This document shows, in pieces, positions 10,711 through 60,844 of a DNA stretch of 64,000 nt. This DNA is from a virus, in the IMG/VR virus record IMGVR_UViG_3300020405_000002, positions 4,735-68,734 of that record; one strand, written 5' to 3'. The notes under the pieces were generated by a model that worked only from the letters and a program-made list of their open reading frames with translations, had not been told where the DNA came from and did no database searches. Numbering within the stretch: the first letter of the stretch is position 1; every line of letters begins with the position of its first letter. Made by a program: the position numbers and the translations under genes.

Positions 10711-13700
10711 TTATTCGTTTATATTTAATTTTGTCATTTTACCAGTATAAGGCGTAGCCCATTGTGATGATACAACTGGTGCTATATCTCCTACACTAAT
10801 GCTATACATACTAGGATAATTACTATTTTCAGGAAAATCTGTATATGCCTGAAACTTTTCAAATTCCCTACGGTTTGTAACTCTATTGTATTTAAATATT
10901 GGTGTAGGTTGTTGTGCTTTCATACCGTATAATGCAAATGCTGTAAATACTTTTTGTGGTACACCTGTAATTTGATCTGTTTTAAAATACAAACCATTAG
11001 CAGTTATATTATTATAAACTTGTACTTTAAAATTTAAAATACCTCTACCAACATAATCTAATTGTACTTCAGCTTCCCATGTGTTTTTTGTAGTATCTGT
11101 TATTTTAAAACCTTCAATATGCATATTTTCAATAGCTTTTGTAGGTGGAACACCATTTGTATAATTAGTTGTAGTTACAATATTTAAAGTACCTGTATTA
11201 GCTAATGTTTTATTATCTGGTATTTGTAAAGGAGATTCATATCTCAAATCTACATATGTACCTGTAATTTTAATTTTTTGGTTAGCTAAAGATCTATCAG
11301 CTACTATACCAATTTTACTTGCATGCATAAATCCTCCTAATGAAGATACTAATTTTTGATTTCCATAAGCATAACTATATTTAACTTTTGGCCTATTAGG
11401 ATCTGGACATTCATCTTTTTTAAATGTTATTTTATTTGATTTATTTATATTACGATAATGCCCTTTTGCAAGATATGCAGGTTGTCCACTATAATCTACT
11501 GTTATAGGATCAGCTAATTTATTATAACCTTCTATACTAAAAGAATAATAATCTTCTACTTTATAACGTATGTTATTATCTTTATCTCTAAAAAACAATA
11601 GACTTCCATCTGTTAACTTTGTATCTGTAGAATACATTGTTATAGTTTGTATGTTTTTATCTATAGGTATACTACAAGGATGATTCCTATGTGCTATAGT
11701 GTTTCCAACTTTAACTTTATACTCTGTAAAATAATTTGGAAAATCATTATTTAAAGTAGCTACAAGGCTAGGCCTGTAAGTTATCCAGCTTCCAGGCGAA
11801 GTACCACCAAAGTTATATTTTATATTTATTGTTAATGTTTTACGATCAGAACTTAACTCAAATGGACCTGTTATACTTTTACTATTACCATATATATCTG
11901 TGTAACTACCCGCCGCAGCTTTACTTATATAACTACCTGAATCAGGAAAAGTAACATCAAATTTATTAGTATCTGTAATACTAGCATCCCACCAATACCA
12001 TAATACATCCGGTAATGTAAGTATATTTTGTATTAATCTATCTTGATTACTAGCATCCCTAACATGCCAATTACCAGTTCTATATCCATTAGAAGGTGCA
12101 TCAAAATTCACATTCCATCCTCCTGTTTCTACCACTCTATGATTTGGGAAATTAGTTATAGATGTAATATTATATTGAGCTGCTATAGTATCAATAACTG
12201 AAACAGCATGAGAGTGATTATGACTTATTGATACACTACTATTACCGTTTTTCTTTGTAAAACCGCTCTCTTTAAGCTGTGTAGGCATAGTTATCAAAAC
12301 ATGTGTTTTAACACCTGTTGTAGCTTGAAATAATTGTTCTACAGGTCTTATAGTAATAGTTTGATTACTTGAAGGCATTTTAAATGCAATGTTTTTAAAG
12401 CCTACAGATAACTCATTTGATGTACCACTTGTTCTTGCGCCAAACTGAACTCTATCTGTGTATGTAGATGTTACATCATTATTTGAACTATCATATAATT
12501 TAAATGGTTGCGTATTTGTAAATGTTGTTTTGGGCTCATAGTTTGATGCTGCATTTAAAGTAAAAAAGTAATTACGTGAAACACTATGTATTTTATTTGA
12601 TGGTGCTGTAATAGTATATGGTATTGAAGCACCTAAATAACCAACTGTGCTATAATTAGTTGTTGCAGTTCCTGAAGCTGTAGTATTACTGTATGCAAAA
12701 GTTAAAGTAACATTTTTTTGTATTATATTTTCTAAGTCTAAGAAAAAGCTTTCACTATTCGCTATATTATCAGATGTAATTTTACCTTCTATAGCTAATG
12801 TATCATTTGTAGCTGTAGTAATAACAAAATTAGAAAAAACTATATTAGTACCAGTTGTATTTGTAGAAAACTGTAAATCATTAAAAACCGGTGTTTTTAC
12901 AACGCTATAACCTGTACCATTAAGCGTTGTTGTTAATTTAAAATCAAAATTTGCTTTATCAGCTGCATAACCTGCAATTTCTACGTTTTTTAATGCAGAA
13001 GCAGCAGAGCTTAGTAACAAATTGTTTGGATTTATAATTAAGCTTATATATTGTAACGTACGTAATGGTCTAGATAAAGTATAAGTTTCTGAACCAAAGT
13101 TAGCATCAAATTCCGTATCTCCTTTTGTATTAATTTTTACAGTAAAATTTAAAGCGCTGTCACCTGCAGGAAAATCTAAATCTATATTTTCTATATCAGT
13201 ACCAAAAACTATAGTTTCTGTTTTAATTACTGAAGAAGCATCTGAAAATATTATTTCACATTCTGCACCTGCTTCACCAATTATTTGTAATATTCTGTTT
13301 TCACCATCATTACTGATAGCACTAGTATCAAGTTTACTAGATAATAATTTTGGTGGCGGTATATATATTTCTTGCGGATCTACAGTTAAAACATAGTTTT
13401 GATTACTTGTATCTACAGTTGGTATTGTAATACTTTCTATTACATCTACGCTACCATTATTATTAGTTAGTTTTAAAGTAATTAATGAATTATCAATACT
13501 TATATTTTGTTTTATTAATGTAAAACCAGAATCAGGCGATACTTTTCTTTGTTTTATTATTTGTTCAGTTCCAGGATCATTAGTAATTGTAAATGTACCA
13601 TTACCTACATCATCAGTAAAATTAAAACCTGTAATACTATAATTACCACTAACTGTAACAGGTTTTAGTAATATTTTACCTGTAAGCGTTATTATTATAG

Positions 13701-16700
13701 TTTGACCATTTACAGGGTTTAATGATTCTAAATATTTACCGCTAATTTTAACAATTACATCGTCATTATCATTATCAAAAGTTATTAAACTAGATGAGTG
13801 TGTAAATAGTGTTTTATTTATTAAATAAGAACTACCGGCTATTAATCTTATCTCTATATCATCTATACTTTTATCTTGTTTTATTTCTATATCGTTTTTT
13901 TGTTGCGATGACCAAGATGTACCATCTTCTACTTTTACATTAAATTTATCTATTGTTTTTGCACCTACTTGTACTATATAATCCGGCGCACCAGCTGCTA
14001 TAGATCTACCAATGCCTTGTGTAGAAAAGTTTTTATTGTCAAGTGTATTTATATTTTTACTTTCTTGTGTAATATTAGCAAAATATTTATTTTCTTTCTC
14101 TGTAAATGCAGTTTCATTACCAATTACTTGATCTGTTCTCAATGTTTTAGCTACCCAACCATTTGTACCTTCATAACCTAAAGTTTTAAACTTTTTAATT
14201 ACGGAAGGATTATCATTTATAACTAACTCTACAAACGAAGGATATTGTACATCATAAAAATTATTAAATAAAGAATTATTACTATAATGTTGCCATAATT
14301 CTCCAAGTCTATACGTGTAATATACGTTATTTAAATAAACACTGTTCTCTGGTATAAACGAAAGCCTTGATACCCAACCATTTGTGTCTTCAGAAAAACA
14401 TATTGTATCTTGATCATCAAAAGAGATATTATAAAGACCATTTCTAGGATCATAACTACCTCTAAATAAACCACTACTAAATAATCTGTTACGGAAAAAA
14501 CTACCCATAAAATTACTTGATATAGGTGTTAATCCATTTTTAGATAATCTTAATATACTACCTCTTTTTCTATCAGCAAAATAACATCTAAAACCATGTG
14601 CTGCAAAAGATTCTGGATTATTGCTTATTCCGTAATCACCATTGTATTCTATAGGATCGCCCAGTACTCTTGAGTCTGATATTAAATTAGAACTACCATC
14701 TGCATTGTACAAAGCAGATTTACTAGCTAATACTCTCAAAGTTTTATCTTCACACAAAACAACTAAAGAATCATCCCAAGCGTGTAACTTTTGTATACTA
14801 CCATAAATAGGTAAAAAGTCTTTAGTTATAGGATTAGCCATGTTAAATTCATTTGTTTTATTAACACCGCTTCTTGAATTTATAATACCACTAAATATAA
14901 GGCCATTAAACTTGTGTTCTTCTAAAAATGGTTGATCTAATACTGTAGAAGCTTTTACACCATTATCTATAAAAACAGCATTAAAATCATCACGTATCCT
15001 ATTTGATTCTACACCATTATTAAATGATATTGCGTTGTACCAATTAAGATCAAGCTCTGTGTTGTGTTTATCAATATCTATAATATCTGATGCCTCAAAA
15101 TATATATTTAATTCTGTTTTACTTTCTAAAGGTTCTGTTTCAAATATAGCTGGATCTTTTACAATAGTTTGTTCATCATCTATTTCTTGTAAAATTTCCA
15201 TTTGTATTTCTTCTTCCCATGTGTCATCACCTCTTGTACAAACTGTTTCATCTAATGGTTTAAAATTACCATCTTCATCAATAAATCTAAAACTTATTCT
15301 TTTATAATCTCTTCTGTTAGTACCACCAAAACCTCTTCTAAAATCTTCTACTAATACTTGGCCTATTTCATATATTGTATCATGATGTAAAGTATTGTCT
15401 TGGTTAGTAAACCTTACGAAATTACCTACTTTTGCAATTTTTGCTAATTTTTCAACTTTACTATTCATAAAGCGAGTAGCTGCTTCTAATGTAATATTAT
15501 ACTCTAAAGAACCAACAACAATTCTTTCACCAGTTTCTGGTGTATTACCGGGTACTTTTGAACCACCAAAACCTACAACAAAATGGTTTCTAGGATCTTC
15601 ATCATGTTTACCTGCAGCGTTTGTTTTACCTCTGTTAGCATTTTCGTATGTATTAGGATTTTTTCTTCCTGTACCTTCTGGCTCGTTTTCGCTATACACA
15701 CCTATTAAATTGTTTGACGCTTTTGCTAAATACTCAATACCACCTACAGTTTGTTTAATAATAGATTCTATTAAAGCTGTATTAGTTTTTATTTTTACAA
15801 AAAATCTACCATCAAATTCTTTATCACCAGCAGCGCTAAACTCCTCATGTATTGTTACATTAACACCAAAGTTAGTACCTGCATCTCCTAAATTGCCAGT
15901 GCTTTTATTATAAATAATATGTACATCTTCTTGAAATGGATCTTCAAAATCTATTTTAATTTCATTATCACCAGAAGGATGTTGTGAAAGTCTTTTTATT
16001 TTATATAACTTTGACTCTTTTCCTAAATATTCAAAAGATATATATCTACCAGCTTTTACTTCTTTAGCATCATCTAAAGGAACACCATCACTGCTACCGT
16101 TTATTTGTTTTATTTGTATACTAGCAAAGTCTTTTACTGGTGCATTGTTTTCTGCGTTTGATTTATTAGTTATAGTAGCACCACCACCAGAACCACTATA
16201 ATCATCTGTAAAAACAACATCTGCAAAAGAAACTACAGCTTTTTTTCTAGCTGTTATAAATTCAGGTGGTTCTGCTGATATATCTATTATTTTATATCTA
16301 TTATTTTCGAAAGTACATGGTTGATTATCACCATGGTTTTTCTTTAACAATAAATAATGTTCTTCTGTAACTTTATTTCTTTCACCTGACGGAAAACTTA
16401 TATAACTAAAACCATTTTCCTCATCATTGTATATTCTATCAGCCGCAAGATTATAATATTCACCTGAAGTTTCTTTTATAAAATACCTATAATGTGTTGC
16501 CCAAGCAGGTGGTTCATTGTTTAAATTTACACATATTCTATTATTATTTATAGATTCATTTTTTGGTACAAATAAAGCGCCTGTTTCGTTTGATAATACA
16601 GGTGTTTGCCTATTATAATCATCGCTATACACAACCCCAAGCTGATAATTTCTATTTGATTTTATAGTTGTTTTTAAATTACTAGCATATGGCTTGTATT

Positions 16701-60443: not shown

Positions 60444-60445
60444 CT

Positions 60446-60844
60446 ATGACTACACAAGCAGACAGATTAAATGAAATGTACAAAACATATGGGTTGTTGC
60501 CTGAAGATATGTTTAAAGAACAACGACAAGGTTGGACAATATTTAGACGTCAAGGTATTGACAAGATACAAGCAAGCGCTAATATTGCTATACATTACGA
60601 ACCTATAGTTGTTGAAAAAGACTTTGTAGTAATTAAAGCTACAGGTAAATACAAAAACAGCGAGATCGAAACATTTGGCGAAGCTGATCGTAATAGTAAT
60701 TGTAGACAAACATATCCTGTTGCGATGGCTGAAAAACGCGCAATGTCTCGTGTTGTACTTAAACTTACAGGTTTTTATGGCCTAGGACACTTTAGCGAAG
60801 ACGAAGGTGATTTTAAACCTGCAATTAGTAAATCTACATTGTAA
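60446..60844 (+). CDS. Putative ssDNA-annealing protein (Rad52/Sak-like fold)
   Basis: VVIKATG..ETFGEA..YPVAMAEKRAMSRVVLKLTG; lies upstream of the exonuclease and SSB. Confidence 0.5.
   Translation: MTTQADRLNEMYKTYGLLPEDMFKEQRQGWTIFRRQGIDKIQASANIAIHYEPIVVEKDFVVIKATGKYKNSEIETFGEADRNSNCRQTYPVAMAEKRAMSRVVLKLTGFYGLGHFSEDEGDFKPAISKSTL

Follow-up and report, generated by a model that had tools for sequence, protein, structure and literature searches.

Does a short word that lies on one strand of a phage chromosome, whichever way the genes run, act as a directional signal, and what might read it? This question is raised by the stretch of 64,000 nucleotides (nt) analysed here (the window; bases 4735-68734 of the 68,734-bp virus record IMGVR_UViG_3300020405_000002), which belongs to a phage labelled G000. 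An earlier note on this DNA had drawn attention to the motif GCTATACAY. The motif was present as claimed, but the true core is longer and sharper, with a T in front, and the consensus is the strict 10-letter word TGCTATACAY. The whole record contains 13 forward and 7 reverse copies of the word. All 13 dispersed copies are on the plus strand, and the inverted copies stand together in a hub of about 1 kb where two opposed gene arms diverge. A one-strand word that ignores gene direction and is flipped only in the hub therefore points to phage-specific machinery that reads the direction of the DNA. Our analysis suggests, with a probability of roughly 0.3, that TGCTATACAY is the strict asymmetric recognition word of a lineage-specific factor, and that it is most like the sites of one-strand nicks.

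The word in the phage and its relatives

The dispersed copies all lie within open reading frames (ORFs), six in minus-strand genes and seven in plus-strand genes, in line with the earlier note's view of a directional word that is independent of gene direction. In the minus-strand arm, GCTATACAT at 10801..10809 (read MYS) and GCTATACAC at 15691..15699 (VYS = GTG TAT AGC) and 16624..16632 (VYS) fall within the gene of a 2531-amino-acid (aa) protein. GCTATACAC recurs in the large terminase gene at 27986..27994 (CIA), in a 2280-aa gene at 34149..34157 (VYS) and in a 152-aa gene at 42186..42194 (VYS). In the plus-strand arm the copies lie in a 71-aa Cys-rich gene (52301..52309, AIH), a small gene (54830..54838, CYT), a 134-aa gene (56720..56728, AIH), an 81-aa gene (57922..57930, AIH) and, as GCTATACAT, a 132-aa gene (60587..60595, AIH). 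These are the 11 plus copies that had been listed before; their coordinates were correct, nine of them end in C as stated, and exhaustive search revealed no other plus copy in the window. Two more plus copies lie beyond it, at genome 755 and 3605. The minus strand of the window holds six copies of GCTATACAY, or seven if the 8-mer GCTATACA is counted, and every one of them lies within 49866-50878, so that the opposite orientation is indeed confined to the hub cluster. The dispersed copies are denser in the early/replication arm, with seven per about 20 kb in the plus arm and six per about 48 kb in the minus arm.

The expected number of 9-mers on both strands was 1.61 (standard deviation 1.21, largest 5), and the 17 observed were reached by none of 100 dinucleotide shuffles. 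GCTATACAC (10 plus and 3 minus copies, about 0.2 expected per strand) and TGCTATACAC (8 plus and 3 minus, about 0.07 per strand) ranked top among all 9- and 10-mers of the genome, and the enrichment of the word was 4- to 50-fold. Across five genomes, a sequence logo showed a T in front of the 8-mer in 34 of 36 dispersed copies and a C behind it in 69%; the flanks beyond 10 bp showed no conservation. One-mismatch variants of the core in G000 were at background and not polar (three on each strand), and two-mismatch variants showed no polarity either.

Selection acts at the DNA level. Ten of the 13 dispersed copies occupy exactly three codons, which is the cheapest placement of a 9-mer within a protein. 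The codings given in the earlier note (VYS, MYS and CIA in one arm, AIH and CYT in the other) were correct, and AIH and VYS together account for nine of the 13 copies. Of the six VYS tripeptides in minus-strand genes, four are written GTG-TAT-AGC, although only 5% of the codons for Val are GTG and 8% of those for Ser are AGC, and the single VYS of the plus arm is coded differently. AIH occurs five times in plus-strand genes, always as GCTATACA plus C or T, and never in the genes of the much larger minus arm. In 500 synonymous-codon shuffles outside the cluster, which retain the tripeptides, the plus strand held 3.04 ± 1.31 copies (largest 7) versus 13 observed, and none of the shuffles reached 13. 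The rare codons and this codon-preserving shuffle uphold the proposal, made before, that selection works on the DNA. The minus strand outside the cluster held no copy versus 1.12 in the shuffles, a depletion that is not significant. The count observed in the relative G007 was likewise reached by none of 500 synonymous shuffles.

Polarity in related phages, a check named by the earlier note, agreed with that in G000. G007 (67,429 bp) is collinear with G000 at about 72% nucleotide identity over 44.7 kb; its nine dispersed copies all lie on the equivalent strand, in both arms, and its four inverted copies all lie in its own hub. Among seven G000 sites in aligned segments, only the one at genome 57035 (window 52301) has the word in G007, and this same site is the only one of five aligned G007 sites that has the word in G000. 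In the more distant G001, five perfect TGCTATACAC are spread over both arms on the equivalent strand; there is also one inverted copy, in the divergence region, and one exception (five of six dispersed copies in the G000 polarity). None of its copies lies at an aligned G000 or G007 site, two of the five being within aligned segments. Closer to G000, a 99.5%-identical contig keeps three of three sites. The 87%-identical contig L127 keeps all three covered sites, including the one at 60587 (as ...CAC), and has a fourth perfect copy where G000 has one mismatch, which makes four copies to none by strand. The layout is thus repeated in the independent assemblies G007, G001, L126 and L127, and by our count the independent sites outside hubs number 27 on the plus strand versus 1 on the minus strand (two-sided binomial, about 2e-7). 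That two relatives have independently regained the polarity at non-orthologous sites indicates that polarity is selected and not inherited. In these alignments positions turn over, with number and direction kept. Such turnover, together with copies deep inside giant genes, fits a signal whose number and direction matter and not its place.

By copy counts, the word system is missing from G002, G003, MW202828 and phi38:1. One copy was counted in G002 and one in G003; the ratio is 5:1 in G004, where two copies lie in a duplicated end, and 3:0 in the partial G005. A hub word with its dispersed inverse was found in G000, G007 and G001 and in none of G002, G003 and G004; MW202828 and phi38:1 have no comparable hub/dispersed word. 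In 22 further relatives' records the 8-mer totalled 11 plus and 29 minus copies, near the compositional expectation. A control with the reversed word was too low, in our reading because the reversed word contains CG. At 80 terminase loci the 9-mer occurred nine times in the G000-like polarity versus once in the opposite one, and the 8-mer gave no signal (14 versus 16). Other words were over-represented in these genomes. In MW202828.1 (L128 and L129), the closest named relative, this was the palindrome GTCGTTAACGAC (GTTAACGAC, 13 plus and 14 minus copies versus 0.23 expected, mostly in the plus arm). AGCTAAAG / CTTTAGCT was over-represented on both strands, without polarity, in G001, G002, G003 and G007 (in G003, 13 plus and 6 minus copies versus 0.86 expected).

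The hub and the phage around it

The hub (49866-50878) is AT-rich, largely non-coding DNA with seven co-oriented inverted copies. The interval from the start of the first minus-arm gene (49584) to about 51100 contains a pair of paralogous 83-aa genes (49961-50212 and 50526-50780), each behind a promoter-like unit TACGA-N19-TGATAAT. The first inverted copy (49866..49874, reading GTGTATAGC on the plus strand) stands back to back with the unit P1 (49880..49910, plus strand) and abuts its -35-like box. Three tandem inverted copies with starts 9 and 10 bp apart (50356..50383) follow the hairpin of the first 83-aa gene. The next copy (50433..50441) abuts the -35-like box of P2 (50445..50475, plus strand), again back to back with a TACGA-N19-TGATAAT unit. 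Two copies lie downstream of the hairpin of the second 83-aa gene, one immediately 3' of it (50814..50822) and one (50870..50878) whose last base is A (GCTATACAA) and which matches the 8-mer only. In G000, therefore, two inverted copies directly abut the P1/P2 -35-like box (junction TGTATAGCAA/CTATACGA...), and such a box is abutted by three of the four inverted copies in G007 and by two in contig L108. The inverted copy nearest to the first minus-arm gene is 282 nt from it in G000, 259 nt in G007 and 297 nt in G001. The inverted copies are placed non-randomly in the hub.

The promoter-like unit occurs eight times in G000 and seven times in G007, without exception on the plus strand of the plus arm. 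In the form TACGR-N18-20-TGATAWT it starts at window 49880, 50445, 51049, 52121, 53395, 56531, 57396 and 59543; none was found in G001. It does not resemble the Bacteroidota promoter type, TTTG/TAnnTTTG. A simple promoter and terminator scan gave nothing useful, and an Rfam search found nothing in the hub. The duplicated 83-aa immediate-early protein has 15 invariant residues across 10 homologues and a confident structure model (predicted local distance difference test 87.1). It matched no Pfam family, and no PDB entry at E <= 0.001. It was dropped as a candidate reader because relatives that lack the word have this protein as well.

To the left of the first hub copy, at 49833-49856, lies a GC-rich palindromic tract, CCCCCCGGGCCTAGGCC, in a genome of 30% GC; G007 and L108 have similar GC-rich tracts in the corresponding position. 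The tract is a candidate site for packaging or for a DNA end. Apparent ends in contigs were discarded as evidence: run X8 left parts uncovered (51-53 kb), and Nextera adapter letters stood at 49852, 49994 and 51051. The first and last 417 nt of the record (G000 1-417 and 68318-68734; window 63584-64000) are 95% identical, and the assembly is therefore circular. Two metagenome contigs span the junction; the assembly, about 68.3 kb when closed into a circle, was built from a mixed population.

The phage is two-armed and of the Flavobacteriaceae-phage kind. Its large terminase is 63% identical to that of an uncultured podophage, 47% to that of the Flavobacterium phages 'elemo' and 38% to that of Cellulophaga phage phi38:1. 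The 24 sequencing runs found to carry this DNA, examined as contigs, are marine metagenomes. The minus-strand arm (window 1346-49584) encodes terminase, portal, virion proteins, tail fibres, GroEL and giant proteins, one of them with a crAss muzzle domain. The plus-strand arm runs from 49961 across the record's end to genome 6026 and contains many small genes. Its proteins include a DnaA-domain-IV protein, a 215-aa helix-turn-helix (HTH) protein, a sigma-70-family protein, a PD-(D/E)XK exonuclease (PHROG exonuclease VIII, 7.9e-23; Pfam DUF3799, 1.1e-14), a primase-helicase, thymidylate synthase, MazG and ribonucleotide reductase. One DNA run and the RNA run contain a variant with 35 unrelated letters in place of 7,391 bases of the early arm (window 51377-58769), which is mosaic between strains. 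At 52859-52998 (plus strand) 140 nt matched the Rfam tRNA model (45 bits, E 1.7e-07), the only match of that search, and ARAGORN called no tRNA there; the segment looks like a tRNA-like RNA with a large insertion. Further words stood out in the whole record: the non-polar 9-mer CTTTTGCAG / CTGCAAAAG (5 plus and 6 minus copies versus 0.38 expected), TGCAAAAG (11 and 11) and AGCATCTGTT (5:1 by strand).

What might read the word

The earlier note had inferred a signal like Chi or KOPS (FtsK-orienting polar sequence) and had named mimicry of such a host word as something to check. A host word of this kind is expected in hundreds to thousands of copies in the host. GCTATACAC occurred at most 28 times per genome in 201 Flavobacteriaceae genomes of 1.4-5.8 Mb, the maximum being in one of 5.8 Mb, and TGCTATACAC at most 22 times per genome in 301 Bacteroidota genomes, with none in 71 of them. 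A metagenome-assembled Flavobacteriaceae genome that holds a related phage contig had 13 copies of the 9-mer in 2.1 Mb. In the genomes searched the word thus appears about once per 150-600 kb, versus once per 5-7 kb in the phage. Host Chi/KOPS mimicry was rejected for these 502 Bacteroidota genomes, in which the word is at chance level. KOPS or SRS (SpoIIIE recognition sequence) signals for FtsK or SpoIIIE, which are dense in the host and change polarity at the origin and terminus of a chromosome replicated in both directions, were also set aside in view of the single flip within 1 kb, the one polarity of both arms and the sparseness of the word in Bacteroidota genomes. Polarity of Type III restriction sites, as for EcoP15I in T7, arises from the avoidance of inverted pairs and leaves one orientation without enrichment; the word described here is 4- to 50-fold enriched and not merely oriented, and this explanation was rejected too.

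Co-occurrence of proteins with the word among the relatives did not reveal a reader. Apart from two tail-fibre proteins and two basic proteins of 85 and 46 aa, none tracks its distribution, and these four belong to no Pfam family. The sigma factor (38-43% identity, similar in relatives with and without the word), the primase-helicase, the exonuclease and a DUF1064 protein are present in all relatives. The 165-aa DnaA-domain-IV protein (window 58127-58624; Pfam Bac_DnaA_C, 6.9e-10) has a coiled, acidic tail and aligns to domain IV of E. coli DnaA (1J1V, E 0.0097), with the recognition helix RHHATVLH versus RDHTTVLH. It was found only in G000, G007 and close strains, and not in the word carrier G001 by tblastn or by a profile search of six-frame ORFs; MW202828 has a small protein annotated as 'dnaA' at the same place. 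The HTH_11 protein occurs also in G007, G001, G003 and G004.

The dispersed copies have the character of a signal to something that moves one way along the DNA, and the hub copies look like protein-binding or promoter elements. For the reading as programmed one-strand nicks, we infer a protein that reads the word, its nicking activity and a role of the nicks. The word would be read on the DNA by a factor private to a small phage lineage, distinct from the host's Chi/KOPS readers, and the dispersed copies mark one strand of the whole circularly assembled chromosome. Site-specific cutting of that strand would produce programmed nicks ('localized single-strand interruptions'), and the hub might be the chromosome end or origin at which the machinery loads or changes direction. 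The model for this is phage tf, a 46-kb podophage with two opposed gene sets, in which a 9-nt consensus occurs 14 times, exclusively on the top strand and nicked in every case, with only 17 sites in total even if any single substitution is allowed (PMC3517423). In favour of this reading are the statistical likeness to tf, the selection at the DNA level, the regained polarity in relatives, the scarcity of the word in the bacterial genomes searched and the turnover of positions.

Several observations weigh against nick sites, among them the inverted copies that abut a -35-like box (two of seven here, with those in G007 and L108) and the three tandem copies one helical turn apart, which are more like protein binding or a promoter. 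No nickase was identified, and the DUF3799 PD-(D/E)XK exonuclease and the DUF1064/endonuclease-like protein are also found in relatives without the word. The word also resembles the extended -10 promoter element, TGnTATAAT. Finally, there are seven inverted copies here, and no inverted array is described for tf, T5 or phiKMV-like phages; site positions are similar among tf relatives (8-9 copies on one strand; PMC3517423), which is not the case here.

The main alternative, that the word is an extended -10 promoter used by host RNA polymerase with a phage sigma factor, is doubtful. Hub copies would fire leftward into the late arm and occlude the early promoters, and dispersed copies would fire rightward, sense in the plus arm and antisense across the late arm, where the antisense transcripts might shut down late genes or, as in T7, draw the DNA into the cell. 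By our own comparison, TGCTATACA fits TGnTATAAT at 6 of 8 specified letters; a sigma-70-family protein is encoded, the early promoters also carry TG-A-TAAT, a leftward copy stands 259-297 nt upstream of the first late-arm gene in all three carriers (see above), and copies are denser in the plus arm, where they would be sense. A weak hint comes from the best-covered RNA contig (49436-49862), which stops 4 nt from the first hub copy; it belongs to one metatranscriptome study, such contigs show neither strand nor true ends, and the DNA contigs of two other runs continue past the stop. The late arms of three genomes, however, hold 13 antisense and no sense copies, and 6 of the 13 dispersed copies in G000 lie antisense inside late genes. 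Plus-arm copies lie within 120 nt upstream of the next plus-strand start in 5 of 14 cases versus 25% at random, which is not significant, and for many copies the next gene start is kilobases away. Variants with one mismatch show neither enrichment nor polarity, an unusual feature if these were sigma-type promoters, and the sigma factor is similarly conserved in relatives with and without the word. The transcriptome paper on phi38:1 (PMC5335546) never mentions promoter, sigma, antisense or motif. It is doubtful, too, that the word is the site of a monomeric DNA-binding protein of the phage, with the hub as an iteron-like origin or operator array. Dispersed copies would then be polar barriers to forks or RNA polymerases moving one way, or, for a unidirectional (rolling-circle) fork setting out from the hub, strand-specific primosome or priming signals on the template of the lagging strand. 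The anatomy of the hub suits such a site, with seven copies of one orientation in 1 kb, a trio spaced at 9-10 bp and others beside promoters or hairpins, and an asymmetric site of 9-10 bp suits a monomer of the DnaA-domain-IV type, such as the 165-aa protein. The phage has its own primase-helicase, and a rightward fork would meet every dispersed copy on the lagging-strand template. Against this stand the distributions: the DnaA-domain protein was not found in G001, the HTH_11 protein is also in G003, which is without the word system, and no protein matches the word save the tail-fibre and small basic proteins. A spacing of 1-12 kb is also too sparse for ordinary Okazaki priming, and, no search aimed at them having been made, we are not aware of a phage in which polar barriers or 10-nt priming words have been reported in dispersed form.

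It is unlikely that the word is a Chi-like stop or switch for a non-host helicase-nuclease, phage-encoded or a defence nuclease, that enters at DNA ends. If an end were located near 49.7 kb, the geometry of Chi-rich phages would be matched, with seven copies within 1.2 kb of it and all others facing the other end, and with the ends just to the left of the hub each copy would point to the end at which such an enzyme enters; the GC-rich palindromic tract adjoins the hub, and number and direction are kept despite the turnover of positions. A host's Chi, however, must be frequent, and the word is at chance level in the 502 genomes and in the one holding a related phage contig. Moreover, the phage has its own recombination-type exonuclease whereas the Chi-rich class lacks Rec modules, 7.5 kb separate the other putative end from its nearest copy, and the overlap of the record's ends makes the assembly circular. 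Finally, chance, codon usage, a repeated protein motif or an assembly artefact is extremely improbable. The AIH and VYS tripeptides do cover 9 of 13 copies; but they differ between the arms and use rare codons, the flanks are unrelated, neither the dinucleotide nor the synonymous shuffles reached the observed count, and independent assemblies have the same layout.

Rather doubtfully, the word could also be one element with two uses, a switch in the hub with the immediate-early promoters and, in its dispersed copies, a guide for a one-way machine along the whole DNA. One candidate would be transcription across the antisense late arm that draws the genome into the cell, a T7-like entry adapted to two arms; another would be a phage-private 'self' mark at which a nuclease stops. 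If true, Bacteroidota phages would have a kind of genome-wide polarity code that has not been described before.

Comparison with known systems

One-strand words are among the few signs of a machine that reads direction along a phage chromosome. The present case extends them to a further clade of phages and another host phylum (marine Flavobacteriaceae-type podophages). It also provides evidence from evolution that selection keeps number and direction as positions turn over, and a hub in which the word changes orientation and is physically linked with the first early promoters. This hub offers a concrete place to seek the reader and the link of the word to the infection programme.

Extended -10 and single-element phage promoters, such as T4 late TATAAATA and the middle/late promoters of Thermus phage P23-45, are similar in that a short strict TGnTATAAT-like word, a phage sigma gene and copies facing the late arm come together. 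They differ in that the late arms here have 13 antisense versus no sense copies and that the copies are no nearer to gene starts than random. Iteron and DnaA-box origins share co-oriented short repeats at helical-turn spacing in AT-rich DNA, with a DnaA-domain-IV protein encoded nearby; P4 has inverted iterons in ori and crr. Unlike iterons, the word is dispersed genome-wide on one strand, and the DnaA-domain protein is missing in the carrier G001.

In the Chi-rich lambdoid phages, the most over-represented word likewise lies nearly all in one orientation, with regional clustering and positions that are not fixed. E. coli phage LLS has 20 of 23 Chi sites in the active orientation, clustered near one end, and in Pseudomonas phage MD8 all 32 have one orientation, Chi being the most frequent octamer (PMC12315714). 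In LLS and MD8 the word is the host's abundant Chi and a recombination module is lacking, whereas here it is at chance level in 502 genomes and an exonuclease is present. A Chi-like layout need not mean the host's Chi.

Phages with programmed nicks remain the nearest model. The host phylum (Bacteroidota) and the phage clade differ from those of the tf-type phages. Sixty years after the nicks of T5 were found, their purpose is still unknown, and the denser half of the tf genome is thought to be packed first (PMC3517423). Phage tf and the LUZ24-like phages, T5/BF23 and the phiKMV-like phages have in common with G000 a strict word of about 9 nt on one strand, in about 9-14 copies per genome and independent of gene direction; tf in particular shares with it the few near-variants, relatives with the same or a slightly changed word and one genome half that is denser in sites (PMC3517423).

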